A DNA stretch of 64,000 nucleotides from the NCBI GenBank assembly GCA_029776065.1, contig JARVJP010000009.1, positions 452,514 through 516,513 on the forward strand. The letters are read 5' to 3'. How positions within the stretch are numbered: the first letter of the stretch is position 1; each line of letters starts with the position of its first letter. This DNA is from Nitrososphaeria archaeon (GTDB taxonomy: Archaea > Thermoproteota > Nitrososphaeria > JACIWG01). Shown piece after piece: positions 23,972 through 56,029 of this stretch. The notes beneath the pieces were generated by a model. That model made no database searches. It had not been told where the DNA came from and saw only the letters and a list, made by a program, of their open reading frames with translations. A program made the position numbers and the translations under genes.

Positions 23972-23974
23972 TAA

Positions 23975-24619: not shown

Positions 24620-24654
24620 TGTTGGTGATTAAATAAAGTATCAGCCTGTTTTCT

Positions 24655-24876: not shown

Positions 24877-24906
24877 AGCCTCTATCTCTTTCGAAAGGTT
24901 AGACTA

Positions 24907-26646
24907 ATGATAGAAGTAATCGATAAAAAATTCATTTGTATAAAGAGGAAAGACAAGTTAAGGCTTTATATGGTAATACAGCTTAAACCAAAGCAGCTTG
25001 TTCAAAGCAAGAAAGATTATATAGACGTACCTTCTGCTGAGGTCATAGTTTCCTATAGGAAGGCTATTGGTTTCTTTGAAGGAATTTACAAGGCTAACAT
25101 TCCCTTGCTCTACCTTGTATCAATTTCTTCTAAACCACAATCCGCGATTCAGAAAATAGTTAGCAGAGCCATCAAGAGTAGCGACGAGGAATTAACTGAA
25201 ATGTTCGAACAAGCCGTTTTTTCTATAACTTGGGCATCAGGTTCTTCATCTAAGTTAGACTCACTTAAATCTGACCTTGAACAAAGGTCACGAATTCTTT
25301 GCACAGCTATGAGCATCGGCTACGAGGACTTCACCCCTGAAGTTCTTCGAGGGCGGCACCTTGAAAGTTTTGTAAAGTTCCTGATCGAACCTGATGGTTC
25401 ATTTGAAGATTCAGAAGAGGTAGGAGTGTCTAAGCTCCCTTTCCTTCTACAATATTCTTCTCTCCTGCCAACAACGTCTTCAACAGAAAACATTCCTCCT
25501 TTTTATATACCTAATTTTGATGAATCAGGTTCTGAAGGGATTTGTATAGGTAATGTGAAGTCTTCTACTGGCAAAGCTCATAAATTTTTCTTACAAGAAA
25601 ACGATTTCTCACAACACCTTTGTGTAGTTGGTATGACCGGTTCCGGTAAATCTACCACCTGCAAATTGATTCTATCACAGATGATAAGAATGGGAAGAAA
25701 GGTGTTGGTATTTGATTGGCATAACGAGTACAGTGAATTCTTTAGAGAGATAAATGGTCAAGTACTCAATATGGGAAAGGATAACTCATGTGTACTGAAC
25801 CCTCTCGAAGCTATCAACACAACTGACGTATATGAACATATCGCGCTTATAACTGATATATTTTCTGAAATCTACAGGTTTACAAGCCCTCAGTCTTTTA
25901 CATTTAGAACTGCATTAATGAACCTATATGGTGATAGGAACAGAGGATACTCGCGCTCCCCAATTCTATCGAATTTAGTCGATCAGATAGAATCCACTCC
26001 TATAAAATCTGCTTATGACACAGAAACAAAGATGGCTTTGCTTAGAAGGTTGATCCCACTGACACAAGGGCAAGCAGGTCTGGCTTTGAACGGAGAAAAC
26101 ACAGTTTCAATACAGTCACTTCTTGCAGGTAATGTATGTGTAGAGCTAGGCCATTTCAGAGACTTCGAAACTAGGGCAATATTCACATCCATACTTTTAA
26201 AGATGGTTTACGATTATAGACTACTGTCCGGTCTATCGACACCACCTCATACGACGATAATTGAGGAATCGAGAGCAATTGTACCATCAAGAAGAGTTGA
26301 AGACCCCCCATCAATAGGAGAGAAGATGGTCGCAGAACTAAGGAAGTTTGGTGAATGTATGATCTTTATAGCGCAGTACCCAACCCAAATATCTACTGAG
26401 ATAATAAAGAATTCTGGTTTAAGGATCATCCATAAGATTTCATGGCTTGAAGATATGCGCATACTAAGAGAGACACTTGGGTTAAGTGAGGAACAAGTTA
26501 AGTTCTTATCGTCTTTAAAGACCGGTGAAGCCATTGTAAGTATTGGGCGGATTAGAGCACCTTTCTTGGTATCAGTTGACGCGTCATCAGTAGTAGGAGT
26601 CTGGAAAGATTCGTCTGAGGTCACCTTTCTTTCTAACAAGCTCTAA
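24907..26646 (+). CDS. DUF87-type HerA/VirB4/CedB-like hexameric ATPase
   Basis: Walker A CVVGMTGSGKST followed by VFDWHNEYSEF (D-x-H-x-EY, typical of HerA/DUF87). 579 aa. Confidence 0.65.
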   Translation: MIEVIDKKFICIKRKDKLRLYMVIQLKPKQLVQSKKDYIDVPSAEVIVSYRKAIGFFEGIYKANIPLLYLVSISSKPQSAIQKIVSRAIKSSDEELTEMFEQAVFSITWASGSSSKLDSLKSDLEQRSRILCTAMSIGYEDFTPEVLRGRHLESFVKFLIEPDGSFEDSEEVGVSKLPFLLQYSSLLPTTSSTENIPPFYIPNFDESGSEGICIGNVKSSTGKAHKFFLQENDFSQHLCVVGMTGSGKSTTCKLILSQMIRMGRKVLVFDWHNEYSEFFREINGQVLNMGKDNSCVLNPLEAINTTDVYEHIALITDIFSEIYRFTSPQSFTFRTALMNLYGDRNRGYSRSPILSNLVDQIESTPIKSAYDTETKMALLRRLIPLTQGQAGLALNGENTVSIQSLLAGNVCVELGHFRDFETRAIFTSILLKMVYDYRLLSGLSTPPHTTIIEESRAIVPSRRVEDPPSIGEKMVAELRKFGECMIFIAQYPTQISTEIIKNSGLRIIHKISWLEDMRILRETLGLSEEQVKFLSSLKTGEAIVSIGRIRAPFLVSVDASSVVGVWKDSSEVTFLSNKL

Positions 26647-41079: not shown

Positions 41080-41269
41080 CCTAGAATCGTTTAAAGGTGT
41101 ACTTATTTTAAGATAAACCTTCCTCTAGTTCATTGTTGATAAAAATTTTTATAGAGTGGCTATTATCATTTTAATTGTAATATATTTTTTTTTAATTTTC
41201 TGTTTTTAATGGGTTCCCTCATCAAAAGCTTAAATAATATCAAGCTAATATTTTCATGGGTAGAATTAA

Positions 41270-42622
41270 TTGGCTCGTATACTACCAGGTGTTGAAATAC
41301 GTGTAGTTAAAGAAATTGTTCCTCAACAACTTCGTCCCGCCGGTGTCGTAGGCTTATTGGGGACGGCTGAGAAGGGTATTCCATTTGAAGCCGTTCCAGT
41401 AACCAGCTATAGAGAGTATATGGAAAAGTTCGGTTCCAACACTGACTATACGCTAACAAAGGACGCTAGGCTCGCATTTTTAAACGGGGTATCCCAAGTA
41501 TTCGCTGTGAGGGTGGAAGGGGAGCCAGGTAAGCCAGCAGAGATTGGTTTAAAGGACGCTAATGGCAACCCCTCCGTGCTGTTGAAGGCTAGAAGCCCAG
41601 GGCCTGTTGGAAACAATATTGAAGTCGTAGTTATGAGAGGCTCGCAGGAGAACTTGATTCGTCTAGAACTCAGTGATGGAAAGATATCTGAGGCCTTTGA
41701 CGACTTGACAATGGAGGCAGCGAATGAGAGAAATCTTGTTTCATTCTTGAACTCTAAGTCTAAATTGGTTCTAGCAGAAGACGTGAGTAAGAAGAAGTTC
41801 CCTGCGAACACCCCCGCTCCTTTAGAAGCTAAGCTTGCAGGAGGCACTCCTGAGACAATATCAAAGAGCTCTGTGGAAAAGGCCCTTCAAGCCTTTGAAC
41901 TAGAACCAGATATCGATATTGTCTTGGCTGCGGACATAAGTGACCCTGCAGTTCATGCGCTTGTTGACGCCCACTGCAAGAACATGAGTAAAGATGCAAT
42001 GAATAGGATTGGAGTGGGCACAGTGGCTCCTGGTGAAAGCGTTAAGGATATCGTTAAGAGGACAGAGGCGCTTGCAAGCGATAGGTTTGTCTTAGTCGCA
42101 CCTTATGGTGTGGCAGGTGCGGTTGCAGGCCTGCTGAGTAGTCTATCATATTACGAATCACCTACCTTCAAAACTCTGACAGGCATCGATAGTGTAGAGA
42201 AAAGATACTCTCCATCAGAGTTAACGGAACTAGTAAAGGCAGGTGTCTTAGCTGTAGAAATGAGGAGAGGGCGTGGTATAATTGTAGAGAAAGGTATCTC
42301 GACAAGTCAGGAGCAGATCAGTGTAACAAGGGTGGCAGACCGTGCTGTAAGAGGGGTGAAAAACGTAGCTGAAAACTTCATTGGTACATTAAATAGTCCA
42401 GGAGGGAGAACTGCTTTAAAAGAGAAGATAACAGAGTTCCTACTCTCTATGGAAAAGGAGGGTTCTCTTGTGCCTAGTGTTGATGGTAAGAAGCCTCCTT
42501 TCATAGTTGATGTTTACTCTTCAGAAATGGACTTCGCGCAAGGAATAGTTAGAGTAGATGTTGCTGTTAGGCCTGTGAGAGCTATCGATTACGTGTATGC
42601 CACGATAACAGTGGAGGTTTGA
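41270..42622 (+). CDS. contractile tail sheath protein (P2 FI / CIS sheath)
   Basis: N-terminus ILPGVEIRVVKE...PAGVVGLLGTAEKGIPFEAVPVTSYREYMEKFG is the hallmark sheath N-terminal signature. 450 aa. Confidence 0.85.
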   Translation: MARILPGVEIRVVKEIVPQQLRPAGVVGLLGTAEKGIPFEAVPVTSYREYMEKFGSNTDYTLTKDARLAFLNGVSQVFAVRVEGEPGKPAEIGLKDANGNPSVLLKARSPGPVGNNIEVVVMRGSQENLIRLELSDGKISEAFDDLTMEAANERNLVSFLNSKSKLVLAEDVSKKKFPANTPAPLEAKLAGGTPETISKSSVEKALQAFELEPDIDIVLAADISDPAVHALVDAHCKNMSKDAMNRIGVGTVAPGESVKDIVKRTEALASDRFVLVAPYGVAGAVAGLLSSLSYYESPTFKTLTGIDSVEKRYSPSELTELVKAGVLAVEMRRGRGIIVEKGISTSQEQISVTRVADRAVRGVKNVAENFIGTLNSPGGRTALKEKITEFLLSMEKEGSLVPSVDGKKPPFIVDVYSSEMDFAQGIVRVDVAVRPVRAIDYVYATITVEV

Positions 42623-42633
42623 GGTGAAGAAAG

Positions 42634-43035
42634 GTGTCTAATCCGTTTATTGCGTCTGCAAACGTTAGTGTAGTCAAAGTTGACGGGGAGGTCATACCGG
42701 GTGTACAGTCAATCGAATGGAAGATAATAAGAAATAGGCAGAACGTGTACAATATTGGTTCACAAGAGAGAGTTGGTGTTGACGTTGGCCCACTGTATGT
42801 TCATGGGCTGATCAGGGTTAGATCAACTTCAACGAAATTAGATGAGCTTCTACTGAAGGAGGTTAAAGACCTTAAGCCTGTTCAGATTCTTGTCCAAACC
42901 ATGTTAAGGACGGCGAAGGTTAAGGATATATCATTCGACGACGCATACGTTGAAGAAAAGACTTTCTCTATCGACTCTAATGGTGTTGGCATTAGCGTCT
43001 ACACCTTCACAGCAACTAGAGTGAGAGAAACCTAG
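42634..43035 (+). CDS. tail tube protein (P2 FII / CIS tube)
   Basis: 133 aa, VVKVDGEVIPGVQSIEWKIIRNRQNVYNIGSQER tube-family pattern. It sits immediately after the sheath gene. Confidence 0.7.
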   Translation: MSNPFIASANVSVVKVDGEVIPGVQSIEWKIIRNRQNVYNIGSQERVGVDVGPLYVHGLIRVRSTSTKLDELLLKEVKDLKPVQILVQTMLRTAKVKDISFDDAYVEEKTFSIDSNGVGISVYTFTATRVRET

Positions 43036-43037
43036 CT

Positions 43038-43409
43038 ATGCCTAAGAAGCTGTCAAAGGACTTGATCCTTGAGGGAGCGAATAGGAGGGAGACGGTATAC
43101 CTTAGAGAATATGATGCTGAAGTCGTAATAAAACCATTGACAGACGGCGAACTATCAAAGATCTTTTCATCCATAGGAAGTGTTCCTCTAAAAGAAGATG
43201 GAACTCCTGACATAGGGAAGATCGATATCTCAAAGAACTTCGAAATCCTCCGCCTCGCTGCAGTCGAAGGGCTCGTTGAGCCAAAGCTCGCTCTAAAAGA
43301 ACTAGAAGCGATGAAGTTTGGTGTCCCCGAGTTCATAGGTATGAAGGTCTTCGAGATCAGTGGCGTAGTTAGAGGTACTGAGGAGGCTAAAAAAAAAGTT
43401 AGAAGTTGA
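43038..43409 (+). CDS. tail assembly chaperone-like protein (P2 gpE analogue)
   Basis: 123 aa acidic protein between the tube and the tape measure. It ends just after an A9 run, with a long open +1 frame beyond. Confidence 0.4.
   Translation: MPKKLSKDLILEGANRRETVYLREYDAEVVIKPLTDGELSKIFSSIGSVPLKEDGTPDIGKIDISKNFEILRLAAVEGLVEPKLALKELEAMKFGVPEFIGMKVFEISGVVRGTEEAKKKVRS
43389..43397 (+). promoter_or_regulatory. A9 homopolymer: candidate programmed frameshift site (or indel hotspot) at the end of the chaperone gene
   Basis: GCT AAA AAA AAA GTT AGA AGT TGA. The +1 frame is open for 71 codons (43399..43614, including LCLDCGY), and its TGA overlaps the GTG start of the next gene. Confidence 0.4.
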
Positions 43410-43610
43410 AAGCTTCGTAAGAAGCCAGGAAGGCCAAGAACTCGCCACACTATGTCTTGACTGTGGGTACAAGCTTGCCGAGAGTCCCAGAGACTTAACT
43501 CGAGATCAAATTCTTTTTTTGATAGCTGCTCTGGCATTCCGTGCAGAACAGTTAGCGCAGGCAAAGTTGTCTGCACAGGGAATAACAAGAATCAACATAT
43601 CAGAAGGGGG

Positions 43611-45359
43611 GTGAGGAATGAAAGGTTGGAAATTAGGGAAATATTAAGTTCGCTGATTAAAGAAATAAATAGGGTTTTAGCTACGCTTGGGGGAGTACTG
43701 TATAAACCTATAAACAACATCTTCTTGTCTTGTTTGAACATCCTTAAGGTTAGTAGTGACGTTTTCAATAAAATTGCCGATTTCGGTGTCTACGTTTTTC
43801 CCCCTTATTTAAGAGCTATCCAATATAACCTTTTTGAGGAAGGGGTAGAGGTTAAACCGTCTTCATCTCAGCTTATTCAACCGAGTTCGGTTCTACAACC
43901 TCATATTAGCTACTCTCTTGAATTTATTAAGAAGTTGCAACCAACAAGGATAAGAGGTAAAGTGAAAGCTGGTGTTGAAGAGTCTTCAATCTCCTATTAT
44001 CCTTTGACAACGTTTTACGATGATCTTACTGCTCTCACCACTCCTGTCACACTAGTTACTAGTAAAATGGTTAAATCAAAACCTTATACTCTAAAGGCTC
44101 AACAAAGGATGATTAAGGAGCAGATTATTGCTCAAGAAGTTACTCCATCTGTTAAGACGGTTTCAGACTCATTTACCGTGTTAAGAGAAGTTTTTAGAGT
44201 ACTAAGCCTGAAACCAGCTATGATACAGTATGGAAAGAAAACTGCTCTAGGACATACTGATGGAATATATTATGAGATTCTCCCAGAGACGTCTAAAGGC
44301 TTTGATCTAGCGCTTACTTCGGTAATAAGTGCTATCAGTCTACCTTTATATTTGATGTCTGAAGCTGAGTTGTATAAGGTTAAAGGTGAGGCACTACCTT
44401 CTGAGACTGAACTAATTCGCCATATTGAATATTCTTCTGTTCCAGCTTACAGGCCAGTTCTATCCCCTCCTTTAACAGATCGAGACCACCTTTTGATACC
44501 TTTGTTTATATTAGCTTTAAGCTGGGTATCTAAATATATTAAATCACCCCTTCAGCCTCTCCAAAAGAGTTACTTGGACTACATCACTTACTCTAAACAA
44601 GCACTTGATGTTGCAGTTAAACCATCTGGTTTAGGGCCGTCTACTGTCCCCCTATTTATACCACATATTCAAAGTCGAATCGAGTCTTATTTATATTCCA
44701 AAGAGAGTTTAAGCGCTATAGAACAGGCTTACTCGGTCACTCAAAGAGTAGTACCCAGTTTCCCAACATCTAGTGTATTTACTTACTCCCCTGTCAAACA
44801 GCTTACTGAATTTATGGTAGATCTTCAGCCTCTTCTTTTAGGGGCCTCCCATGTCCCATATTCGGACCAACTTGAAGCACATCCTTTGAGTATGTATAAA
44901 GTAAGCGTGTCTTCTATAGCTCTATCAGATTTTCACCCATTTAGACATATGCCTGCTTCCATGGTTAAAGCTTTGATGTTTACTAGACATGCTTTGAATA
45001 AAGTTTTACCATCAAGTTATTTGATGACAGTAGACGGATTTGTCATTAAACAAATAGATATAGTGAGGTTAGAGACCTCATCTCCTCTAGTGACCTCGTC
45101 TATCGAATACACGAGGACGATACGGGAATTTAGGATGGCTGAATTAGAAGCTGAACAGGAAATTTTAGCCTCCAAATCTTACCCATCTTTGAGTACTGAG
45201 AAACCTCTGCTCACCCCATCCTATCTCATACCAGAAGTCCAAAACATCTTTCAAATCACCGTTCCAGAGGAGTCAGATTTAGATCTAAAAGAGTTAGAAA
45301 GAAAGATTACGCGCATTCTTAATGAGCAAGTTCGGAGGTATTATGGTTACCTAAGTTGA
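43611..45359 (+). CDS. tape-measure-like protein (P2 gpT analogue)
   Basis: 582 aa, Ser/Leu/Pro-rich with no enzymatic motifs. It is positioned after the chaperone as in P2 and R-pyocins. Confidence 0.4.
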   Translation: MRNERLEIREILSSLIKEINRVLATLGGVLYKPINNIFLSCLNILKVSSDVFNKIADFGVYVFPPYLRAIQYNLFEEGVEVKPSSSQLIQPSSVLQPHISYSLEFIKKLQPTRIRGKVKAGVEESSISYYPLTTFYDDLTALTTPVTLVTSKMVKSKPYTLKAQQRMIKEQIIAQEVTPSVKTVSDSFTVLREVFRVLSLKPAMIQYGKKTALGHTDGIYYEILPETSKGFDLALTSVISAISLPLYLMSEAELYKVKGEALPSETELIRHIEYSSVPAYRPVLSPPLTDRDHLLIPLFILALSWVSKYIKSPLQPLQKSYLDYITYSKQALDVAVKPSGLGPSTVPLFIPHIQSRIESYLYSKESLSAIEQAYSVTQRVVPSFPTSSVFTYSPVKQLTEFMVDLQPLLLGASHVPYSDQLEAHPLSMYKVSVSSIALSDFHPFRHMPASMVKALMFTRHALNKVLPSSYLMTVDGFVIKQIDIVRLETSSPLVTSSIEYTRTIREFRMAELEAEQEILASKSYPSLSTEKPLLTPSYLIPEVQNIFQITVPEESDLDLKELERKITRILNEQVRRYYGYLS

Positions 45360-45889
45360 TAGGTGGTAGCTTGAATATAAAACTTGATGATATAGATCTT
45401 GTGAAAAGAGTTGACGAGGAAGGCGTTAGGGAGGTTAGGAGCATACTCAACGTTACAATTTTGGGTAAACGTCATGTGAAAGAGTTTAAAGTACCAGGGC
45501 TAGAAGGTAACGTCTTTCAAGACTTAGGACGTGATTCTTTGACGATAATAGTAGAAGGGTTACTTACTGGTCTAAACTCAAAGGATACTTTTAAAGAGAT
45601 GAACTCTAAGTTTAAACTCGGTCGACCGATACCCTTTATCACCGATATTCCATCTTTGACTGAAATATCGGAAGTTGTAGTTGAAGGTTTTAAGGCGAAG
45701 GTTGTCAGCGGGATGTCTTTAAACTATTGGTATCTCCTAACACTTAAGGAGCATAAGAGTAGTCCTCCGAAGCAATCTGAAGTGCCTAGTCAAGAAGAGA
45801 CAGCAAGAGAGGAAACTAAAGAAGCTATAAAGCAGATCCGTAAGGAAGTAGAGTTAAAGTCGGAGGGAAAGGCGCCACTAAAAGGGTGA
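45356..45889 (+). CDS. tail protein, gpU-like by position (hypothetical)
   Basis: 177 aa, overlapping start/stop with its neighbours. Assigned by synteny only. Confidence 0.3.
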   Translation: MIGGSLNIKLDDIDLVKRVDEEGVREVRSILNVTILGKRHVKEFKVPGLEGNVFQDLGRDSLTIIVEGLLTGLNSKDTFKEMNSKFKLGRPIPFITDIPSLTEISEVVVEGFKAKVVSGMSLNYWYLLTLKEHKSSPPKQSEVPSQEETAREETKEAIKQIRKEVELKSEGKAPLKG

Positions 45890-46980
45890 AGGAAGTTGGA
45901 GGGATCTATTCTTTCCGATTAAGTTGGAGAATGGTGACGCAAATGCTCTTTCCAAATTATAAAGTTGAAGTAGGATCTGAAAGCTTTAACCCTGATTCGC
46001 AGTCGATCGTTGGGTTTAATATCAAGTTGGGCTTAGGCCCAAAGGTGGATAGTTTCGAGCTCTTGTTGGTGAAGGATGATCGGAGCTTAAAGATTACTCG
46101 AAACGATTTCGTCAACGTATTTTTAGGGTACGAAGATGATATGGAGAAGGTGTTTTCTGGTTTAGTTGAAACAGTAGAGAAAGGTATCTCGACTGTTAGG
46201 GTTTTTGGGCTAGCTTTCTCAGTGAACTTCCTTTTGTTTAGGATAAATAAGGTGTACCTTAATCAAACGGCAGGGCAGATCGTTTCCGATCTCCTCTCTT
46301 CCGTGAAGCAAAGGATGAAAGAAGTTAAGTGGTTTCCTGTTGAAGAAGGGCAGATAATGGATGGCTTAAGCTTCCCAGTTTACGTTGTTGATAACCGTCT
46401 AAGTGCCTACGAACACATAGAGAAGCTTGCTAAACGATCTAATTACGTATTTTATATATCGTCTGAAAATAAGCTCTTTTTTAAAAAATTTGAAGAAGGC
46501 GAAGTACAAGTACTTAAATACGGAAGGGACATTATTGAAGTGAACGTGACTAAAATGGTTGGTCAATACGATTCGGTTATTGTTTACGGTGAAAGCCCAT
46601 CTAGTTGGTCTGGTCGTGAAACCTACCATTGGCTATCTAAACGAGAGGTTTTTGGGCTTGCCTCTTATAGTTCCACCGAAGGCCAGAAGGAGGTTTCAAG
46701 GAGGCACTTGCTTACAATGCAAGACTCAGTTATAAAGGATGGCGACACAGCATTTACCACAGCAGGAAATGTAGCAAATATTGTTAACAGCGAACTTCAG
46801 GTAGTATTAAAAGTTGTGGGGAGCTCTAAGTTAAAGGTTAACGATACCGTAAAGGTGGAGGGATTAGAAGGTGATGCTTTTAATTCCCAGTTAAGAATTG
46901 TTGAAGTCGAGCATTACTTAAGTAGGGTCGATGGGTTTACTTCGATTATAACATGTGTGCCGGAGGAGAAAGCGTTATGA
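45886..46980 (+). CDS. baseplate hub protein, P2 gpD-like by position
   Basis: 364 aa, a similar size to gpD, in the U-D-V order. Confidence 0.4.
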   Translation: MKEVGGIYSFRLSWRMVTQMLFPNYKVEVGSESFNPDSQSIVGFNIKLGLGPKVDSFELLLVKDDRSLKITRNDFVNVFLGYEDDMEKVFSGLVETVEKGISTVRVFGLAFSVNFLLFRINKVYLNQTAGQIVSDLLSSVKQRMKEVKWFPVEEGQIMDGLSFPVYVVDNRLSAYEHIEKLAKRSNYVFYISSENKLFFKKFEEGEVQVLKYGRDIIEVNVTKMVGQYDSVIVYGESPSSWSGRETYHWLSKREVFGLASYSSTEGQKEVSRRHLLTMQDSVIKDGDTAFTTAGNVANIVNSELQVVLKVVGSSKLKVNDTVKVEGLEGDAFNSQLRIVEVEHYLSRVDGFTSIITCVPEEKAL

Positions 46981-47696
46981 GTATTGTAGAGTTGATAAAG
47001 AAGATCGCAGAAAATGAAGCTAGAAAGATCCACACTATCGAATTAGGTGTTGTAACATCGGTGTTTCCTCACTCGTCTCCTGATGATAAAGATAACTATG
47101 AATGCAACGTAAAACTCAAAAATATGGATTTAGAGCTTCAAAGGGTTCAAATCGCTACACCGATAATCGGTCTAGCTGAGCCACCAAGAGTAGGGGATCT
47201 GGTTCTAATTGCATTTGTCAATGGGGATATCAACTTACCAATTTTGATAGGTCGGCTGTATAATGATGAAGACCGTCCTCCAATAAATGACTTAGAAGAG
47301 GTAGTTTATATCCCCAAATATGAAAGAAACCCCGAACGGAGGCGAGTCTACCTGGAATTTCCTGAAGGGATAGTTCTCAAGGTTACTGACGACGACGTGA
47401 TGGTTAAGACTGGTGAAACGAAGGTGGTTATCCAAAGAGATGGCGATGTTCTGATAGAGTCAAAGGCTAACATAACAGTGAAGGCGGAGGGGGATGCTAA
47501 GATAAAGGTGAAGGGGAGCCTTTCGCTTTCAGCAGCTTCTATAGAAATGGAAAGCGAGAAAAATATGGGTATAAAGGCAGGATCAGATTTGAACATTAAA
47601 TCAGATAGTAATATTGAATTAAAGTCTAGTAGCCAGATGAAGGTTGAGGCTAGTGCTGAAATGAATATAAAAGGAGCGAAGGTGAACATTAACTAG
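46953..47696 (+). CDS. baseplate spike protein (P2 gpV / gp5-like OB-fold plus beta-helix)
   Basis: GDLVLIAFVNGDINLPILIGRLYNDEDRPP matches the Phage_base_V OB-fold motif. The C-terminal repeat run ITVKAEGDAKIKVKGSLSLSAASIEMESEKNMGIKAGSDLNIKSDSNIELKSSSQMKVEASAEMNIKGAKVNIN is beta-helix-like. The true start is probably an internal codon (MSIVEL). Confidence 0.65.
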   Translation: MCAGGESVMSIVELIKKIAENEARKIHTIELGVVTSVFPHSSPDDKDNYECNVKLKNMDLELQRVQIATPIIGLAEPPRVGDLVLIAFVNGDINLPILIGRLYNDEDRPPINDLEEVVYIPKYERNPERRRVYLEFPEGIVLKVTDDDVMVKTGETKVVIQRDGDVLIESKANITVKAEGDAKIKVKGSLSLSAASIEMESEKNMGIKAGSDLNIKSDSNIELKSSSQMKVEASAEMNIKGAKVNIN

Positions 47697-48119
47697 GTGA
47701 AGCTTGTGTCTAATTTGTTGAAAGCAGATTTGAAATTGAAAATTGTTGATGGGGGTGCTGATTTCTCGATTCAGGAGGGGGATTTGGAGATTGTAAGCGA
47801 AGAAGATAATCTAGCACAGTCCATTATACATAGGCTTATGACTGGTAAAGGTGAGCTTTCTGAATTGGGGCATCCAGATTATGGGTCAAGGCTAAATGAT
47901 ATTTTAGGCCAGCCGAATAACGATGAGACAAAGGGTAGAGCTCGAGCTCTAGTATTAGACTGTTTATCCCAGGAAACCAGAATAAAAGATATACTAGATG
48001 TAAAAGTTGAAGCAAATAGGCTTGACTCACATAAGATCGACATAGAGATCTTCGTTGTACCTGTTGGAAGCAATAAGCCTCTAGGTGTTTTTTATTCTCA
48101 ATCTCTCGAAGTGATCTGA
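47697..48119 (+). CDS. gp25/GPW-like baseplate wedge protein
   Basis: LAQSIIHRLMTGKGELSELGHPDYGSRLNDILGQ matches the GPW_gp25 signature; 140 aa. Confidence 0.75.
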   Translation: MKLVSNLLKADLKLKIVDGGADFSIQEGDLEIVSEEDNLAQSIIHRLMTGKGELSELGHPDYGSRLNDILGQPNNDETKGRARALVLDCLSQETRIKDILDVKVEANRLDSHKIDIEIFVVPVGSNKPLGVFYSQSLEVI

Positions 48120-49690
48120 TGCCGTTAGAGAAGAAGAGTTACAGGCAGATTGTAAACGACATCCTGAAGCGACTCGGGGAAACATATGAACAGTTCACCT
48201 ATTCCAAGGCTAAGGCAAGGTATTTTCTATCAGGAAAGGCCATTGAAGTAATCGCAGTACAAGGAATCTCTAAGAACGCGAAAAAGGAGTTTAAGAAGGA
48301 TGTTGACTACAAGTTCTCTGAAAACTTCATCGAATGGCTCTACGAAGGGGAGCGACCAGATGAGGGGACAGAGTTCACAGTTGTGTACAAGTCGCAGAGG
48401 CCAGAGATTACCGATACCGCGCCAGGTAGTGTCGCGAGGACTTTGATAGAAGCGATAAGCAGAGAAATAGAGTACCTAAATGAACTTATATGTCAAGCAT
48501 ATGATGCAGGATTTATTGATACCGCGTCAGGGGACTCATTGGACTTGGTCGTCGCTATATTGGGTATTAGAAGAAAACCACCTCAACCTGCTTCAGGATA
48601 CGTTACCTTTGGAAGGCGCACCGAACCCGAAAGCATCCAAGTAAAAGGTGAAGTGGTCCTATATGACGGGTCAGTTTCATATCAACTTAAGTCTAAGCTC
48701 GTAAAGGAAGTTGTTAGTGTCAAAGGCGTCACCCAAAACGTTAAGAAGAATTACAGAAAGGATATCGATTACTCTTTGGTTGGCAGACAGATAAGATGGC
48801 TGCCTAATGGTGAAAAGCCTGATGAAGGCACTACCTTTACTATCGACTATGAAGCTTATCGTGAAATCATTATCCCAAAGGGTACAAAGATTTCAACCTA
48901 TTCTTCGAAGCCTGAAGAAGTAAAAACCTATATCACAGCTGAAGAAGCTTTTCTCAGCCCTATCTCTGAAGGTGTTTGGGAGGTTGATGTGCCCGTTATT
49001 TCAACAGTCCCTGGACCTTTAGGTAATGTGCTTGCTGGTTCGGTGAATGTTCTTCCTCAGCCTTTGATGGGTATAGAGTATGTGATTAACAAGAACGATA
49101 TTGGAGGAGGGTTGGACACAGAAACCGATAGGGAACTAAGGGATAGAGCTAAACACGCCCTCGAAATAGCTGGTAAGGCGACTCTCCCATCGCTTGAAAC
49201 CGCGGTAAAGTCGGTCGAAGGTGTTAGCTCGGTGTTAGTGAAGGACACACTTGATGGTATGCCTGGTGTTGTTAAGGTTATTGCAGACGGTGGTGACCCG
49301 GATAAGATAAGGAAGGCCATTGAAGACACTAGAGCCGCAGGGATCAAAGTCGAGTTTTCTAGGCCTAGGGCTGTGTATATAGATGTGGAATTGACTCTTA
49401 TTATTGGGAAGGCTGTCTCAGAAGTTGAGGTGTCTAGAAAGGTTGAAATGTTAATTAGAAGTTATATCTCATCACTTGGTATAGGAGATGATGTCTTTTT
49501 TTACAAGATTGCTGCTTTAGCATTAGATGTACAAGGTGTTTTCGACGTTTCTGATATAGTGATCTCTTCGTATCGAGGAGGAGTCGAGGTTGTAAAGAGC
49601 GATAAAGAAAATATAGAAATTTCTGATGAAGAGAAGGCTTTGGCTCGTAACATCGTGATCTCCTTTAGAAAGGTGAATAAGGTTGAGTAG
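48119..49690 (+). CDS. Baseplate_J (P2 gpJ / T4 gp6-like) wedge protein with an internal duplication
   Basis: 523 aa. A repeated module (KKDVDYKFSENFIEWLYEGERPDEGTEFTVVYKSQRPEI vs RKDIDYSLVGRQIRWLPNGEKPDEGTTFTIDYEAYREII). C-terminal region typical of J-family proteins. Confidence 0.65.
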   Translation: MPLEKKSYRQIVNDILKRLGETYEQFTYSKAKARYFLSGKAIEVIAVQGISKNAKKEFKKDVDYKFSENFIEWLYEGERPDEGTEFTVVYKSQRPEITDTAPGSVARTLIEAISREIEYLNELICQAYDAGFIDTASGDSLDLVVAILGIRRKPPQPASGYVTFGRRTEPESIQVKGEVVLYDGSVSYQLKSKLVKEVVSVKGVTQNVKKNYRKDIDYSLVGRQIRWLPNGEKPDEGTTFTIDYEAYREIIIPKGTKISTYSSKPEEVKTYITAEEAFLSPISEGVWEVDVPVISTVPGPLGNVLAGSVNVLPQPLMGIEYVINKNDIGGGLDTETDRELRDRAKHALEIAGKATLPSLETAVKSVEGVSSVLVKDTLDGMPGVVKVIADGGDPDKIRKAIEDTRAAGIKVEFSRPRAVYIDVELTLIIGKAVSEVEVSRKVEMLIRSYISSLGIGDDVFFYKIAALALDVQGVFDVSDIVISSYRGGVEVVKSDKENIEISDEEKALARNIVISFRKVNKVE

Positions 49691-50582
49691 TGCGAATCGG
49701 ATAAGTAGACGTCTTCCTAGCTTCTATAGGTCTTGGGATAAAAATTCAACAATCTTTAGAATTGTTAATGCAACAAGCAGTGAAATTGATAGTAGCCGAA
49801 ATTTGATCTTGGAGATGATGCGCTCCCATTGGGTTGATTCTGCTTCAGACGGTGACTTAGACAAAATGAGCCAATTGTTTGGTCTAAAGAGAATAGTTGG
49901 GGAGGACGATGACCACTTCAGGATGCGTCTAAAGGGAGCTGTTGTTGATTTTACTGGTGGTGGAACACTTACCTCTATAAATTCAATGCTTAGGGCTCTA
50001 ATAGGCAATGACGTTTGTGTAATTGAAAACCCTCCGACTGAAGCCTACTTTGAAGTTAGAGTCATGTCCGGTGACAGTTGGTCTATTGGAAATAACAGCG
50101 TTGAGGAAGTTTCTATACCTGAAATCGTTATCGAAGCTGAAGACGTCATTGAAAACCCCCAAATATTAAATGAAGATTTCGAGCAAACTATAGTTTACAA
50201 CGGTGTGTTGAATAAGGGAGACAAGTTAGTGATAAAGGATGGAAAGTTCCTATTAAATGGGGAAGACGTTTCTGAGAAGGTCTCCTCAAAGGATCTACCT
50301 CGGGTTTATAGACGTGTTTCAAGTTGGAAGTACGTTGAGCTTATAAGGGAGAAGATAGGTGTCTTCGACTCCACGGCATTTGACGAGAGCATATTCGCCG
50401 TGAACGTGCCAAAGGCTAAGATATCTATGAAGTGGGTTCGGCTCCAACCTGCAACCTTCTCAGTTAGATTGAATCGGGATTCTTTAAATAGAAGTAGGGT
50501 TCCTAAGGAATATGTGGAAGAAGTTCTGAACTCAATTAAAGCTGCTGGTGTAAAGGTAATTGTTGAGGAGGTAGGTGAATGA
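49683..50582 (+). CDS. baseplate protein, gpI-like by position
   Basis: 299 aa, overlapping its neighbours; it follows the J-like gene as in P2. Confidence 0.35.
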   Translation: MSSANRISRRLPSFYRSWDKNSTIFRIVNATSSEIDSSRNLILEMMRSHWVDSASDGDLDKMSQLFGLKRIVGEDDDHFRMRLKGAVVDFTGGGTLTSINSMLRALIGNDVCVIENPPTEAYFEVRVMSGDSWSIGNNSVEEVSIPEIVIEAEDVIENPQILNEDFEQTIVYNGVLNKGDKLVIKDGKFLLNGEDVSEKVSSKDLPRVYRRVSSWKYVELIREKIGVFDSTAFDESIFAVNVPKAKISMKWVRLQPATFSVRLNRDSLNRSRVPKEYVEEVLNSIKAAGVKVIVEEVGE

Positions 50583-51232
50583 ATATGCCCAAGTTTAAAC
50601 CTGTAACGAGAAAGTCAGGTGAACTTATTAGAGCTGAAGACTGGAATAAGATTCAAGAGGACATTCAGGCTGACATAGAAGAACTGGATACTAAGATAAC
50701 CCAGCTCAGGAAGTACGTGGACAGCCTTAACGAAAGTACGACGATCCTTAATCCTGCAAGCCCAGTTGGCATGTCTTATAGTCTGACGGAGAACATTCCT
50801 GGAGAAAAGGATAACTACGTGACAACTGTTGTAGGCCCAATTACAAGGCAGTGGGCTATGGAAAGGGGAAAGGTTGGAGAGCTATGCAAATTTGGTCTCG
50901 CAGAATACTTTGAAGTACTAGACTACTGGGCTGGTGCGGAGGACGGGGATAAAAAGGCGTTGGAGATTCTCTTCGAGTACCTTGACGGAACCTCTGCGGT
51001 GGTGAGTGGCCTGTTTATACATGAGTGTTCTAAGCTTAGGCCAAAGGGAACCGAAAACCCCTTTTTAGAGTACCTTTTATCTCCAAACGAAAGAGTGTGG
51101 TACAGGTATAGAGTGAAGAACCCGCACCCAGAAAAGGAGGTTTTTAACATCACGTTTAGAAAGATCGAACCAGGGTGCATTCTAAAGATAGGGAATGTAA
51201 TAAACTTCAAGTCGAAGATGACCACCCTGTGA
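50579..51232 (+). CDS. tail-fibre-like / receptor-binding protein candidate (hypothetical)
   Basis: 217 aa. An N-terminal coiled segment (RAEDWNKIQEDIQADIEELDTKITQLRKYV) resembling fibre N-termini. Position after I. Confidence 0.3.
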   Translation: MNMPKFKPVTRKSGELIRAEDWNKIQEDIQADIEELDTKITQLRKYVDSLNESTTILNPASPVGMSYSLTENIPGEKDNYVTTVVGPITRQWAMERGKVGELCKFGLAEYFEVLDYWAGAEDGDKKALEILFEYLDGTSAVVSGLFIHECSKLRPKGTENPFLEYLLSPNERVWYRYRVKNPHPEKEVFNITFRKIEPGCILKIGNVINFKSKMTTL

Positions 51233-51239
51233 GGTAAAG

Positions 51240-51911
51240 GTGATGTTCGTAGAGTTTGAAGACAAAATCGTCGACGCTTTGAAGGCCAGCGTTAAGGAGG
51301 TTCCCAAGGGGAATATAATAGTGGGCGTAGAAGGTGATAAGGTGCCATCGATATACATATCCAATATTTTCTTCAAGATTGAGAGATCCAATCTATCTGA
51401 AGACGAAGAAGGTGAAAGAATAAATGAAGTCTTTGATGGTGATGGTTCCCAAAAGAGGTACCTGTTAAGGGGGAAACCTGAAAGTGTTCTTAGCGTTGAG
51501 TCGCCTAAGGGTAAGGTGCTTCAGATTTGGGATCAATACACAGTGAACCTAGAAGAAGGTTCGGTGACGTTTCGTCATCCTCCAGCCAAAGACTCAAAGA
51601 TAATCATTAACTATGTCTCAAAGATCAAGAAGTTGAAGGTTGTGCGGTTAAAGCTTAAGGCGAAGTATTCGTTTACCATATCATCAGAAGATCGGAGACA
51701 ACTGGATAGCACTGCTGAGGGTGTTATAAGGTCTCTTCTTAAGGTTGAGAGAGAGCTTGAACAGAAGGGCTTTTCTCTTAAACCTTCTTCTGGAAAGTAC
51801 CTTTCAGATAACAAGATCAAGTTATTTTACCATGTTGAATTAGAGATCGAGTCAGCAGAAGCGATTCCTCCGATAGAGAAGATAGAAATAAGAGAAAGTC
51901 ATGAAGCTTAA
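51240..51911 (+). CDS. hypothetical tail-associated protein
   Basis: 223 aa in the same operon; could be a fibre chaperone or terminator. Confidence 0.25.
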   Translation: MMFVEFEDKIVDALKASVKEVPKGNIIVGVEGDKVPSIYISNIFFKIERSNLSEDEEGERINEVFDGDGSQKRYLLRGKPESVLSVESPKGKVLQIWDQYTVNLEEGSVTFRHPPAKDSKIIINYVSKIKKLKVVRLKLKAKYSFTISSEDRRQLDSTAEGVIRSLLKVERELEQKGFSLKPSSGKYLSDNKIKLFYHVELEIESAEAIPPIEKIEIRESHEA

Positions 51912-51913
51912 CT

Positions 51914-52411
51914 ATGAGCCAGAAGACTAAGCTTCCATATGGGCCAGTGAAGCTATCGGTAGACGCGATTGGTTTCGAGGATGGTAGGATTGTACAGTTT
52001 GAAATATATCGGAAGAAAGGTGGGAAAGAAGAGTTGGTTAGCCAAGTTAATGGCGCTGTAGTAGACCAAAAAGCAGAGGCTAAGTGGGTACCTGAAGCTG
52101 AAGAACGCAGAATAACCTTGGGAGGCGATTCGACGGAGGCTGGCGACGTTCCGGAGGATGAGGAGTACTATTTTAAGGCAAGGATCGACGAATTGGAGGT
52201 GAGCTCTGAAAAGTTTGAGTTCACATATCCGTTAGAAATTTATTTAAAAGACGATCGTGGCAGACCATTAGATGGTCTTAAGTTTGAAATAGAGTTCTCT
52301 GATGGTAGCAAGAGGGAAGGAGTCATCAAGGATGGGTATGCGAAGGTTAAAGATGCTCCAAAGGGGCGCTTCAAGGTGAAGGTCAAAGGGTACAAATTTA
52401 AAGAGGGTTAA
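51914..52411 (+). CDS. hypothetical tail-associated protein
   Basis: 165 aa, acidic/Lys-rich, in the operon. Confidence 0.25.
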   Translation: MSQKTKLPYGPVKLSVDAIGFEDGRIVQFEIYRKKGGKEELVSQVNGAVVDQKAEAKWVPEAEERRITLGGDSTEAGDVPEDEEYYFKARIDELEVSSEKFEFTYPLEIYLKDDRGRPLDGLKFEIEFSDGSKREGVIKDGYAKVKDAPKGRFKVKVKGYKFKEG

Positions 52412-52416
52412 CTGCT

Positions 52417-54558
52417 TTGAAGAAAAAAAATGTTTGGTGTCTGATTTTGAGTGATGGTTCTGGGCAGGGTGTTGTTGGAGCAAACCTGACATTTGCAGAC
52501 GCGACCCTCTCACAAGAAGTATCTTACTGTGTACGTATTAGGCTTGGCGTTCTCCCAGAAGATTCGAACTACTCTTTGGAAGCTGAGGATCTCGCAAGTG
52601 ACGCCTATTCACCTTATGATGAAAGCAAGGATATATTGCATGAGTCCTCTATAAATCTAAGGCTTTGTATCGAAGAAAACATAGCTCATAACGGTCTTTC
52701 AATTAATGACAAGTGTACCTTTTATCGCCACTATGGGCTAATGGATCAAGTGGATGTGTTTCTTCCGTTAAGGCTTGAAGTCGTAAAGATGGAGGGTGAT
52801 GCCCGTTCCGATTTCATGGAAGAAGAAGTTAACGTCGTGTTTGAAGTCATCGATCCGGCAGAGAATTTATCCATAATAAAAGGTCCTAAGGGAAAGGGTA
52901 GAACTGGCAAGGATTTCATTAGAAACCTAGTGTATAAACAAGAGGGAGATGATAACTGCATAAGAGATTTTGCACCACGCCCTATCAGAAATCGATGTCG
53001 TCAATCAAGTTCCGATGTTGTTAATGCTAAAGACATTTTATTTGACAGAAGAAAGAACAGTTTTGAGACAGCTTCAAGTGATCCAAAAAGCGTAGTCGCC
53101 TCGATCCAAGAAACCGAGGTTGAAGAAGGTAAGAAGATAGGCGTATTGAACTTCTTCTTTCACCCGCCACCGATAGCAGGTGACAACTATAAAATTAGAG
53201 TCAAGCTAATATCGAGCTCTGGGGCAGAGGTACTATTACGTGATAAACCAGACTCAGCATTCTATCCACTTTATTTTCAGACACCAACAATCACCATCTG
53301 GAAGAAGGTTAAGGTAGAAATGGTTGCTATACAAGAGGGACTTGATTACAGCATGTTGGGATGGAGCAAGATTAAGAGAGCGTACAGGGACGCATACATT
53401 GAAATCGAAGAGGCTGCGGATGACAGAAGATACATAATCACACGTGATGAATGGATGAGTTATCTAGGTCGCGTGGTCTATGATGAATGGAGGTCACATG
53501 AATGGGAAGAATACATTAAGCAAAGCTACCACCAATACCATATAGACGACTTCAAAAAGTACTCTTTTCCGCAAGATCATACTTTCGACACACCCTCTGT
53601 ACCGAACTCTGACAGGTTAACGCCACCAGATGATGACCCTGACCATCCAAACAATACTACTTGGGAGTTTTTAGGTCGTATCGCTAGAGCGGTGATAAGG
53701 GATAAGCTAGGTAACTCTAACTATAGGAGACTTGGTCAACCAAAGAATGGTTTTAGGCTTGGGATATGTGTCTTGTTCTGTAAACCTCCCTTTGATGGGT
53801 CGACCGTCGGTGGAAGTTATATATGGGACAAGATGTTCTACATGGTCTCATCAGGGGATGTTGCGAATACGTTTGTTCACGAGATGGGGCATGCCCTTTT
53901 CTTAGACCATGGTGCCACCGCTTTCAATACAGAAGCAGATTTCCCATTTACTACTCGTACAGAGGAATCTGGTTCTTCTGGTCCATTCTGGGATAATCAC
54001 GACAGCCAAGATATGATAACTTGCATTATGTCATATGAGGTGGACTCTCCAGTTGAATGGCACTTCTGCGGTCTGTGTCTTCTGGTCTTAAGATTGTATG
54101 ATCGACACCATATGTTAAGCGGTCCAAATGATACCTTGAGGAAAGTACTCTACCCTGGTTCTGCTGACCTGTGCTGGACTGAGACTGTTAAAAATAAGGT
54201 AGTCGAACCGGATGGTTTTGAATATGAAACATTCTTCCTTAAAATTTATCGTGGTAATCCAGGCCCTATGAGTATTGGCAAGAGTCTTAGACTGTTAGCT
54301 CTATATCCCCCAGAGGGGGTAGAAAACAACCTACATCAAGATTTCTGGAAAGATCTGAGCCGTTTCCCCAGAGGTAGATGGGTTTCTAGTAATCCGAGTG
54401 TTGCGACTGTCAGTGTATCGAAAATGGGGGATTTTTGGGTTGCTCAGGTTAGGGCTTTGAGAAAGGGCACTACGAATATTTACCATGAGATAAGGAGAAG
54501 TACAGGTTGGAGTGGCGACGTCGATCGAAGCCTTCCGATGGTGATAACCGTTGTCTGA
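52417..54558 (+). CDS. large metzincin-like zinc metalloprotease domain protein (putative tailocin/eCIS effector)
   Basis: VHEMGHALFLDHG (H-E-x-x-H-x5-H), then ...ITCIMSY (Met-turn-like) in the C-terminal half of a 713-aa protein. The gene starts 6 nt after the preceding one. Confidence 0.5.
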   Translation: MKKKNVWCLILSDGSGQGVVGANLTFADATLSQEVSYCVRIRLGVLPEDSNYSLEAEDLASDAYSPYDESKDILHESSINLRLCIEENIAHNGLSINDKCTFYRHYGLMDQVDVFLPLRLEVVKMEGDARSDFMEEEVNVVFEVIDPAENLSIIKGPKGKGRTGKDFIRNLVYKQEGDDNCIRDFAPRPIRNRCRQSSSDVVNAKDILFDRRKNSFETASSDPKSVVASIQETEVEEGKKIGVLNFFFHPPPIAGDNYKIRVKLISSSGAEVLLRDKPDSAFYPLYFQTPTITIWKKVKVEMVAIQEGLDYSMLGWSKIKRAYRDAYIEIEEAADDRRYIITRDEWMSYLGRVVYDEWRSHEWEEYIKQSYHQYHIDDFKKYSFPQDHTFDTPSVPNSDRLTPPDDDPDHPNNTTWEFLGRIARAVIRDKLGNSNYRRLGQPKNGFRLGICVLFCKPPFDGSTVGGSYIWDKMFYMVSSGDVANTFVHEMGHALFLDHGATAFNTEADFPFTTRTEESGSSGPFWDNHDSQDMITCIMSYEVDSPVEWHFCGLCLLVLRLYDRHHMLSGPNDTLRKVLYPGSADLCWTETVKNKVVEPDGFEYETFFLKIYRGNPGPMSIGKSLRLLALYPPEGVENNLHQDFWKDLSRFPRGRWVSSNPSVATVSVSKMGDFWVAQVRALRKGTTNIYHEIRRSTGWSGDVDRSLPMVITVV

Positions 54559-56029
54559 AAGAAAGCCCTTAAAGTCTTCGGAAACCCCTATTTCGGTTTC
54601 AGTAGATTTTGAAGAACGTGAATACGTCAGATACGAATCAATACCTCTTTCAGTATCTATTGAAAACAAGGGTTCTTTACCAGTGAAGATCGATGAATTT
54701 ACAGTATCGAGTGAGACTTTGCAGGTTCGCATGATAGATGATTCAGGGGAAAGATACTCTGGGTCACCACTTAGTTGGCTGGCGAGGGAGGGAATACTCG
54801 TTCCACCTAAGAAGAGAAAGTCGTTCTTTCTCAGCTCAGGGCAAAAGAAGTCAATCTCAATAGATTTGATCAAGATCTTTGGAGAGCTCAAGGAGGGAAC
54901 TTATAGGGTAAGAGTTACATATCATTCTGGTGGTGTTCTGTTCGTCGACTCTAAAGTTTTTAAGGTGAAGGTTGTATCCGCTGGACCAGTGTACTCATTT
55001 ACCCCTAGGGATCTTTTTCAGCTTAATGCGCCGATACGCACTGTGTGGGTTAACTATGAAAATAACAGTTTCTATCTGTTTATTCTTGAAAACAGTCCTA
55101 ATATGCCAAAGAATATTTGGAGTTGTAGACGTATTATGGAACTGGAAAGTCGCCAGGAACCGCAGCTATCGCTTCTTGAAAGCTACGATCAAAGATATGA
55201 GCATGTAATTTGGTATAGCCAGAAGTCTGTCACAATTTTGACTATCTTGAGAACTCAGAAGTCTGAGTTCAAGAAGTTCACATCATATCTCCCGTTTCAT
55301 AAGATCATTGGCCCTCCGTTTACAATCGAAGATGGCACTTTATTCCTTCTTATAGTATCAAAAGATGATAAATGGGGATCTGCAAGCTTGTTCACGCTCT
55401 CTCCTGATGGAAGGGCGAAGTTGACAAAGTTCTTGTCATTCAAGGGTATGCTTGTTGAATGTAGTGTTCTATTTAAGCGTAGGCGGGCTTACATTGTTTA
55501 CATGCTAGAAAAGGAGCCAGTTATACACTATCTTGAATTAGACTTAAATAACTATGAAGTTTGTACAACAAGATCGATCACTTTGGAGAGTATAAAAACG
55601 CCTTATACAGGATTAACCCTCTACTACGCTTGCAGAGATAAGGAGGGGGAGCGAATGCTTTGTGCACACATCATGACCGAAGAAGTAGGTAAATATTGTT
55701 CCCAAGTAATAGATGTTGGACGATGCAGAAATGTTTTCAACCTCTTCTTCCCATCAGCTGAACGCATGAATCTAAAGTTGTTAGATTTAACCCTAGACCC
55801 AGAATGTATGCCACATTACCTTTTTCAAGATCAGTGGGGTGCCCTCTGGTATCAGTCGCCAAAGGAGATAGGGCTTCAGAAGGTCACCGCGGACGATGAG
55901 ATCTGCCCAGGTAACGTGGTTTCTCCTACACTTATTATTTCCTCTCCATCCAGTCGCCACTATGGAGTATACTTAAGATACATAAAGGACAGATCACATT
56001 TTATATACAAGGACGTTGAAAAGCTATAA
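54551..56029 (+). CDS. hypothetical protein (effector-associated or accessory?)
   Basis: 492 aa, overlapping the end of the metalloprotease gene by 8 nt. No recognisable motifs. Confidence 0.3.
   Translation: MSERKPLKSSETPISVSVDFEEREYVRYESIPLSVSIENKGSLPVKIDEFTVSSETLQVRMIDDSGERYSGSPLSWLAREGILVPPKKRKSFFLSSGQKKSISIDLIKIFGELKEGTYRVRVTYHSGGVLFVDSKVFKVKVVSAGPVYSFTPRDLFQLNAPIRTVWVNYENNSFYLFILENSPNMPKNIWSCRRIMELESRQEPQLSLLESYDQRYEHVIWYSQKSVTILTILRTQKSEFKKFTSYLPFHKIIGPPFTIEDGTLFLLIVSKDDKWGSASLFTLSPDGRAKLTKFLSFKGMLVECSVLFKRRRAYIVYMLEKEPVIHYLELDLNNYEVCTTRSITLESIKTPYTGLTLYYACRDKEGERMLCAHIMTEEVGKYCSQVIDVGRCRNVFNLFFPSAERMNLKLLDLTLDPECMPHYLFQDQWGALWYQSPKEIGLQKVTADDEICPGNVVSPTLIISSPSSRHYGVYLRYIKDRSHFIYKDVEKL

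Follow-up and report, generated by a model that had tools for sequence, protein, structure and literature searches.

We have analysed a 64,000-nucleotide (nt) stretch of contig JARVJP010000009.1 (positions 452,514 to 516,513 of the forward strand; the window), from a metagenome-assembled genome (MAG) of a Nitrososphaeria archaeon, in which a gene for a predicted tail assembly chaperone (TAC) ends just past a run of nine adenines and is followed by a long open frame that is out of register with it. The frame-0 open reading frame (ORF), at 43038-43409 on the plus strand, encodes a short form of 123 amino acids (aa) that ends in ...EEAKKKVRS and is identical to protein P0001 of a Nitrososphaeria archaeon MAG. 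The A9 run, which is the single A9 of the 64-kb window, occupies 43389-43397 (+), where frame 0 reads GCT AAA AAA AAA GTT AGA AGT TGA, with the stop 9 nt past the run; we take it to be the slip site from this sequence and from the presence of an A-run at the same point in related loci. The +1 frame is preceded by a TAG at 43366, opens at 43369 and stays open to the TGA at 43612-43614, which leaves an overlap of 43369-43409 (+) for a change of frame, from the opening of the +1 frame to the close of frame 0. Beyond the run, the +1-frame extension (43396-43614, +) comprises 71 codons after KKK and is translated as KKKLEVESFVRSQEG...ISEGG. The N part and the extension joined would make a long form, 191 aa in length or, with two A's inserted, 192 aa. 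The earliest ATG, GTG or TTG in the +1 frame is a TTG about 122 nt 3' of the run, and the ORF list of the window contains none of 40 aa or more terminating at 43614. Directly upstream of the run, 43380-43388 (+) is a purine-rich, Shine-Dalgarno (SD)-like stretch, GAGGAGGCT, whose last base is a T that is conserved 5' of the run. The positions of the run, of the frame-0 end and of the +1 frame, as well as the extension as quoted, are those given in an earlier annotation made from the letters alone (the original prediction). That annotation also had the TGA of the extension overlap a GTG start of the next gene at 43611; this GTG is a possible start, but the NCBI start of the identical protein P0156 is a TTG at 43626, five codons later, so that the stop/start overlap is uncertain.

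A homologue search with the conceptual fusion of the N part and the extension as query returned more than 180 homologues, nearly all of them 118-128 aa long with a C-terminus of KKK plus 0-5 residues, while four span both halves in one frame. The proteins P0004, P0006 and P0013, which are read in frame through an A10 run, have C-terminal halves homologous to the extension and share 56-60% full-length identity with the query. Loci were fetched from species-representative genomes (53) and from metagenomes (80), and 137 loci were compared, the N part and the extension each being located by a separate tblastn; the junction was readable in 132. An A-run of at least six is present at the junction in all 132 of these loci and is exactly A9 in 104 (79%), and the extension is out of frame in 127. 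In 91 loci it is shifted by -1 and in 37, the window's among them, by +1 (about 70% versus about 30%). Counted by run length over the loci with a usable junction, with the anomalous A7 locus L131 excluded, the loci with A6 (one), A7 (nine) and A8 (one) are all of the -1 type; those with A9 divide into 75 of the -1 type and 29 of the +1 type with none in frame; those with A10 include five -1, six +1 and five in-frame loci, and the two with A11 are both of the +1 type. The original prediction had remarked on a +1 direction in place of the usual -1. The direction stands, but it is no oddity of the window, being one of two states of the family. The loci span at least eight archaeal lineages, including Nitrososphaeria, Methanomethylicia, Bathyarchaeia, Geoarchaeota, Hadarchaeota, Methanoperedenaceae, Methanocella, Methanoregula and others, and the layout is found in the closed genomes of Methanocella sp. 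MCL-LM and Ca. Methanosuratincola verstraetei. A 96%-identical relative of the window locus, L058, has the same A9 and the same +1 layout. Parsimony on a neighbour-joining tree requires at least eight switches between -1 and +1, which arise by 1- or 4-nt indels just 3' of the run. In some loci the run is bracketed by an extension-frame TAA, formed from the T before the run, and by a frame-0 stop 0-3 nt after it, so that the frame can change there only inside the run. Among single loci, L050 (Methanoregulaceae) retains a -1 extension behind a degenerate A6 site (CAA CAA AAA AGG TAG), and L131, with its extension cut short and a stop interrupting its conceptual fusion, may be a decaying copy. 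Two further loci carry the archaeal cluster in MAGs labelled bacterial, namely L021 (DATLAV010000049.1, Patescibacteria) and L029 (DATKWN010000118.1, Krumholzibacteriaceae); the junction of L029 is near-identical to those of the Bathyarchaeota loci L023-L025, and binning contamination is therefore probable.

Both the extension and the run are conserved well beyond what chance would leave. No stop is found in the extension frame of 113 non-identical loci, compared with a frequency of 6-8 per 100 codons for the remaining two frames, and the ratio of nonsynonymous to synonymous substitution (dN/dS) is 0.15 for the extension versus 0.21 for the N part. Judged from these sequences, the extension is under purifying selection, and the possibility raised with the original prediction, that coding-type conservation might be lacking here, does not hold. 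Once corrected minimally, by plus or minus one A, the loci can all be aligned from the run on, and the extension follows the consensus KKK-[R/L/S]-[L/I]-E-x-E-x-F-V-x-S-P-E-G-x-E-L-A-x-L-C-L-D-x-G-Y-K-L-A... The run itself is AAA AAA AAA in 82 of 82 phase-0 loci, although lysine elsewhere in these genes is encoded by AAG in 65% and AAA in 35% of cases. It is kept across a locus GC content of 0.36-0.69, and 750 kb of flanking sequence hold six other A/T runs of nine or more. A9 occurs in all three codon phases, in which the encoded residues differ (KKK; QKK followed by R or S; VKKK; RKKN); the conserved feature is the length of the run and not the peptide. A T precedes the run in 83 of 118 unique loci, and in 79 of the 82 phase-0 loci (as GCT, AGT, CCT, TCT, GTT and others) against a background of 19% T at four-fold third positions of the same genes; a G follows it in 107 of 118. 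These enrichments define a conserved motif, T-A9-G, whose T (43388 in the window) creates a TAA in the -1 frame. GAGG or GGAG occurs within 15 nt upstream of the run in 77 of 118 loci (65%) versus a background of 20%. It could be an SD-like ribosomal stimulator or simply the code for a Glu-rich linker, as the Glu codon has a G at its third position in 57% only. No conserved RNA structure was detected around the run by RNAalifold on 37 loci from -45 to +100 (two invariant pairs, -0.2 kcal/mol).

Neither the fused nor the short chaperone sequence matches a TAC family of Pfam or PHROG, so that the assignment needed a structure model. An AlphaFold2 model of the fused protein, built on a 40-sequence alignment and searched with Foldseek, has an alpha/beta N domain and a helical C domain (pLDDT 82.6, pTM 0.74), the extension being modelled as helical with pLDDT of about 85-94. 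Its top match in the PDB, which is also the top match of the N domain, is the HK97 TAC 2ob9 (probability 0.90, E=0.2). In BFVD, many proteins annotated as TACs match the model with E-values of 1e-3 to 1e-1, and the viral models matched include those of the archaeal viruses HCTV-1, HHTV-2 and ChaoS9, FS-gp41 of phage Mu and an uncharacterised protein of Methanobacterium virus Drs3. These fold matches, taken together with the gene order, identify the gene as a predicted two-product TAC of the G/GT (P2 E/E') type. As in that type, the downstream ORF is shifted, lacks a start of its own and is conserved as coding, and a slippery sequence lies within the ORF overlap, where related loci also have an A-run; the -1 shift on an X_XXY_YYZ heptamer is not found, the extension of the window being +1. 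Agreement with G/GT, the analogy drawn in the original prediction, extends to gene order, two-ORF architecture and predicted fold.

We conclude that the A9 run is very probably a programmed recoding site from which two products are made from the chaperone gene. A single-A homopolymer miscall would give the same picture in one genome, and the window does come from a MAG, but about 130 independent assemblies, closed genomes included and many archaeal classes represented, show the same out-of-frame layout, the 96%-identical L058 has the same A9 and +1 layout, and the extension is under purifying selection. The one-base assembly error left open by the original prediction is thereby excluded, and the chance that this MAG carries an indel or a decaying pseudogene is negligible. 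Translation of the extension as a separate gene from an internal start, for example by termination-reinitiation and without ever being fused, has somewhat more to recommend it, in that gene callers annotate extension ORFs of 56-85 aa in some genomes and that an ATG or GTG lies within about 24 nt of the run in the extension frame of 41 of 112 loci, sometimes as an ATGA over the frame-0 stop. However, in the window the first start lies 122 nt past the run, and L005 has none (median distance 30 nt, upper quartile 126 nt), and conservation of the extension frame begins at the run itself (KKK-[R/L/S]-[L/I]-E-x-E-x-F). Since a start codon lies near the run in only 37% of loci, independent initiation cannot be the general route; on these counts a start-independent explanation is needed for the other 63%, and we consider two never-fused genes very improbable. 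The third rival, DNA phase variation, in which replication slippage would toggle the run between A9 (short form alone, OFF) and A10 (fused, ON), draws on the five of 137 loci that are in frame with A10 and on one 98-99% identical population (ENA ERZ25073474-502, Logan SRR26215703/05 and JGI contigs), in which six contigs with A10 (L056, L137-L141) and eleven with A9 (L130, L142-L151) have identical flanks and A10 occurs on at least three single-nucleotide polymorphism (SNP) backgrounds. Such a mixture would also result from cDNA libraries or homopolymer miscalls. All five in-frame loci have the -1-type spacing with one A over the usual A9, and for two of them, L056 and L057, the flanks recur around an out-of-frame A9 in L130 and L027, respectively. 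In-frame alleles are rare (about 4%), scattered singletons that form no clade, which argues that the out-of-frame state is what selection maintains. Moreover, the free length variation, with ON and OFF states both common, that marks a phase-variable contingency locus is not seen, run length being near-fixed at nine; no in-frame A8 allele was seen among +1-type loci; and a genome with A10 would produce the long form almost exclusively, where the G/GT paradigm requires an excess of the short one. Phase variation therefore appears improbable. Two other accounts of the A10 contigs were considered and rejected: that they are a strain lineage, as they share no SNP haplotype, and that they are assembled transcripts, three of them beginning 2-86 nt 5' of the sheath gene, as the same break positions are found in many A9 contigs and every contig of the population ends within the first kb of the next gene, which makes these ends assembly breakpoints.

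If the site is recoded, standard expression would yield the 123-aa short form, the analogue of gpG and of P2 gpE, and a fraction of expression events would shift frame inside the run to give a long form of about 191 aa with the helical C domain, the analogue of gpGT and E+E'. By analogy with lambda and P2, both forms would be needed in a set ratio to load the protein encoded at the tape-measure position and to start polymerisation of tube and sheath. How the frame is changed can be read in two ways, and we favour slippage of the RNA polymerase, a view that we hold to be about evenly poised between right and wrong on present sequence evidence. The RNA:DNA hybrid would realign on the T9 template and produce a mixed mRNA population, in which A8 (or A11) transcripts would bring the extension into frame in the window and A10 transcripts would do so in the -1-type relatives. 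As insertion and deletion transcripts would always coexist, interconversion of -1 and +1 types would be easy. Slippage is favoured by a length of nine where a heptamer would do, by independence of codon phase, by the lack of conserved RNA structure and by +1-type loci without a slow or stop codon after the run; the length constraint and the two-way use make it at least as likely as a ribosomal frameshift. In the +1-type loci, no consistent rare or stop codon follows the run, and insertion of two A's restores exactly the linker length of the -1-type relatives, with K replacing R. A homopolymer of about 8-9 or more that is conserved at the nucleotide level, as expected of slippage, is present, and so is independence of codon phase and direction, the latter weakened by the phase of the A7 loci. 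In many genomes, selection against slippage-prone runs sets in at nine A's or T's, and the A9 run of Thermus thermophilus dnaX gives rise to mRNAs of variable A length (PMC1088944); a type VI secretion system (T6SS) gene uses a poly-A transcriptional frameshift (PMC4256274). Several points weigh on the other side. The reviewed literature holds no demonstration of programmed transcriptional slippage in Archaea, the only experimentally shown archaeal frameshift in the reviews consulted, that of fucA1, is ribosomal (PMC8211752), and the phage TAC frameshifts studied to date are ribosomal too (PMC5009743). An A9 in any phase, like every run of seven or more, also holds an in-phase A_AAA_AAA, and all nine A7 loci are of the -1 type with exactly (C/A)GA AAA AAA, the canonical heptamer phase, which fits a -1 ribosomal shift; the upstream GAGG/GGAG enrichment could be an SD-like ribosomal stimulator.

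These points are what makes ribosomal frameshifting a serious competitor, if one that we would not expect to prevail: tRNA-Lys would re-pair on the A-run while the mRNA stays A9, by a classic -1 shift on A_AAA_AAA in about 70% of loci and by a +1 (or -2) slip from AAA to AAG/AAA in the window and the other 30% or so. Runs shorter than nine are confined to -1-type loci (11 of 91 versus 0 of 37), as this reading would have it, and the precedents are ribosomal, both the characterised TAC frameshifts and the predictions for haloarchaeal viruses, among them a +1 shift in the myovirus HSTV-2 (PMC5009743, PMC8211752). A further pointer comes from ORF20 of Methanobacterium virus PhiF3 (L152, MN737622.1, 3995-4558), a chaperone homologue with 35% identity, in which an unannotated +1 extension, open from 4380 with its stop at 4556-4558, encodes the LGYKL...DLT motif without any A-run, so that the frame shift there must be ribosomal; CAA TTT CAT and CGA TGA are candidate shift sites, and the ORF is probably an unannotated TAC frameshift of an archaeal siphovirus. 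On the other hand, a heptamer would be enough, yet 104 of the 132 loci hold exactly nine A's, including positions that the heptamer leaves unused in phase-1 and phase-2 loci, and no -1-type locus was seen with the synonymous change of the last frame-0 Lys from AAA to AAG (A_AAA_AAG). One site would also have to serve opposite directions through at least eight evolutionary flips, and the +1-type loci have neither a slow or stop codon after the run nor a conserved stimulatory RNA structure. Stimulation of -1 shifting by an SD sequence in E. coli is reportedly best at a spacing of 10-14 nt, a bacterial optimum that may not hold for archaea, and the SD-like motif here lies nearer, about 7 nt from the heptamer. 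A mixture of mechanisms is possible: the -1-type loci could change frame by a heptamer-based -1 shift, and those of the +1 type, the window's included, by slippage or sliding. Returning to RNA-polymerase slippage, we propose tentatively, and with slightly less than even confidence, that T-A9-G could be a conserved site of programmed transcriptional slippage, the first in Archaea, yielding A8, A10 and A11 transcripts and through them the short and the long form.

Frameshifts in tail chaperone genes are among the most conserved recoding events in viruses, and to our knowledge almost all the evidence for them is bacterial and ribosomal. The present case is of a known kind; what appears to be new, within the literature that we searched, is a pan-archaeal cellular tail-only cluster with a T-A9-G site and both frame directions, which adds a family from Nitrososphaeria, Methanomethylicia, Bathyarchaeia, Hadarchaeota, Methanocella, Methanoregula, Methanoperedens and others. 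Like lambda gpG/gpGT and P2 gpE/gpE+E', the gene lies between the tube or major tail gene and the gene at the tape-measure position, has a short product and a predicted C-terminally extended trans-frame product with a startless second ORF, and is modelled with a TAC-like fold. The P2 operon FI-FII-E-E'-T-U-D has the same overall order as sheath, tube, E/E', T, (U) and D here. The present gene differs from those of lambda and P2 in its archaeal host and in a cluster without head genes, in a slip site that is a 9-nt homopolymer where a heptamer (for example G GGA AAG or T TTT TTG) would be usual, in a +1 direction here that flips among orthologues, and in having no sequence-based membership of a Pfam or PHROG TAC family. 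Exceptions to -1 are known among phages, as +1 and -2, and in HSTV-2 (PMC5009743), and TAC frameshifts have been predicted in archaeal viruses, -1 in HVTV-1 and HCTV-1/2/5 and +1 in HSTV-2 (PMC5009743, PMC8211752). The archaeal tailed viruses share the archaeal translation and transcription context with our locus, and the TACs of HCTV-1, HHTV-2 and ChaoS9 match its model; the locus is set apart by its conserved T-A9-G and by its place in a cellular tail-only island. The documented cases of transcriptional realignment, in T. thermophilus dnaX, insertion sequence elements, Shigella mxiE and Citrobacter T6SS tssM, likewise use a homopolymer of about nine (PMC1088944, PMC3711429, PMC4256274), and realignment at A9 or T9 resembles the situation here in a length conserved regardless of codon phase, in the lack of RNA structure and in the use of both frames. 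Those cases are all bacterial or viral, and the present candidate site is archaeal.

If slippage is the mechanism, the site would be the first example in Archaea of conserved, programmed transcriptional realignment, and lineages would have been free to flip the extension between -1 and +1 at least eight times without ever losing the long form. The family offers a natural, phylogenetically replicated test bed, cultured Methanocella included, for whether archaeal RNA polymerase slips productively on A/T runs, and for how the ratio of short to long chaperone is set. In every source checked the locus is annotated as two hypothetical ORFs or as one truncated ORF, and gene callers therefore need a rule for this family. 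The site is also a marker for a tail-only (tailocin-like) cluster, widespread in archaea, in which a phage-style assembly logic is kept.

The chaperone gene belongs to a co-oriented block of about 15 kb (41270-56029), in which the order is sheath, a 133-aa tube-like protein, chaperone, a 582-aa gene, a DUF6046-like protein, a gpD-like hub, an oligonucleotide/oligosaccharide-binding (OB)-fold spike, a gp25-like sheath initiator and baseplate J, followed 3' by a baseplate protein (PHROG 1160) and five ORFs without matches. The first gene (41270-42622, +) encodes a contractile tail sheath of 450 aa (Pfam Phage_sheath_1, E=2.9e-18) with additional weak Pfam matches to sheath N- and C-domains. Directly 3' of it, the 133-aa protein (42634-43035, +) is probably the tail tube, a weak and positional identity: its sole family match is to Hcp/TssD (E=0.088), and its single-sequence model is of low confidence (pLDDT 53), the best matches (E of about 0.02-0.2) being neck or neck-tail-junction chains of about 140 residues from phage 812 and the lambda gpU tail terminator. 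The gene at the tape-measure position (43611-45359, +) encodes 582 aa from the GTG at 43611 or 577 aa from the TTG at 43626. Its product has no match in Pfam or PHROG, none by tblastn in the phage collection and two database homologues in all; across loci its C-terminal 40-100 aa alone are conserved, with the N-terminal part conserved too in close relatives. Position and this pattern of conserved termini are weakly suggestive of a tape measure. The protein evolves very fast, and its richness in Ser and Pro (11.7% S, 7% P) would be atypical of a helical tape measure. In the A9/A10 population mentioned above, the contigs all break within about 1 kb into this next gene, which suggests a strain-variable region there. 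For the names tube and tape measure used in the original prediction, therefore, the positions fit, while the identities rest on position and weak matches.

Both flanks of the cluster consist of archaeal housekeeping genes (PfkB kinase, HycI, NucS, AdoMet synthetase, CTP synthase, archaeosine TGT and TatD), those 5' of the sheath being cellular genes on the opposite strand. A prophage was considered and rejected, as the window has no capsid, portal or terminase gene and the flanks are housekeeping. By its gene content the cluster is a tail-only, P2-like module (FI-FII-E/E'-T-U-D, then V-W-J-I) in a Nitrososphaeria chromosome. A Pfam scan of all cluster ORFs (41270-56029) found no AAA+ ATPase (Cis15/Afp15) and no DUF4255 cap (Cis16/Afp16), with divergent versions possible among the five matchless ORFs. 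The haloarchaeal T6SS-like contractile injection system (CIS; PMC11566945) and the phage-like protein translocation structures (PLTS) or extracellular CIS (eCIS) of methanogens and anaerobic methanotrophic archaea (ANME; PMC12180501) resemble the cluster in being chromosomal sets of sheath, tube, spike, gp25 and baseplate-J genes; in the haloarchaeal paper, the one CIS paper searched for it, the word 'chaperone' is absent. Unlike eCIS of the Afp/PVC type, the cluster is without a detected Afp15-like ATPase or Afp16/DUF4255 cap and has a TAC frameshift and a P2-like order, and from these features it looks nearer to an R-type tailocin or a myovirus tail module than to an eCIS.

Two other homopolymers and one other gene block of the window deserve mention. 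The sole other 9-nt homopolymer is a T9 at 41185-41193, in the intergenic region between the divergent PfkB kinase gene (minus strand) and sheath gene, and it may be part of the promoter region. An A8 run at codons 3-5 of a 713-aa ORF (52417-52440, TTG AAG AAA AAA AAT GTT TGG...) encodes MKKKN followed by hydrophobic residues and looks like the n-region of a putative signal peptide rather than a recoding site. A block at 21709-26646, which lies upstream of the tail cluster and is seemingly unrelated to the A9 site, includes two ATPases, one T2SSE-type and one HerA/TraG-like, and may represent a pilus/archaellum or a conjugation-like system.

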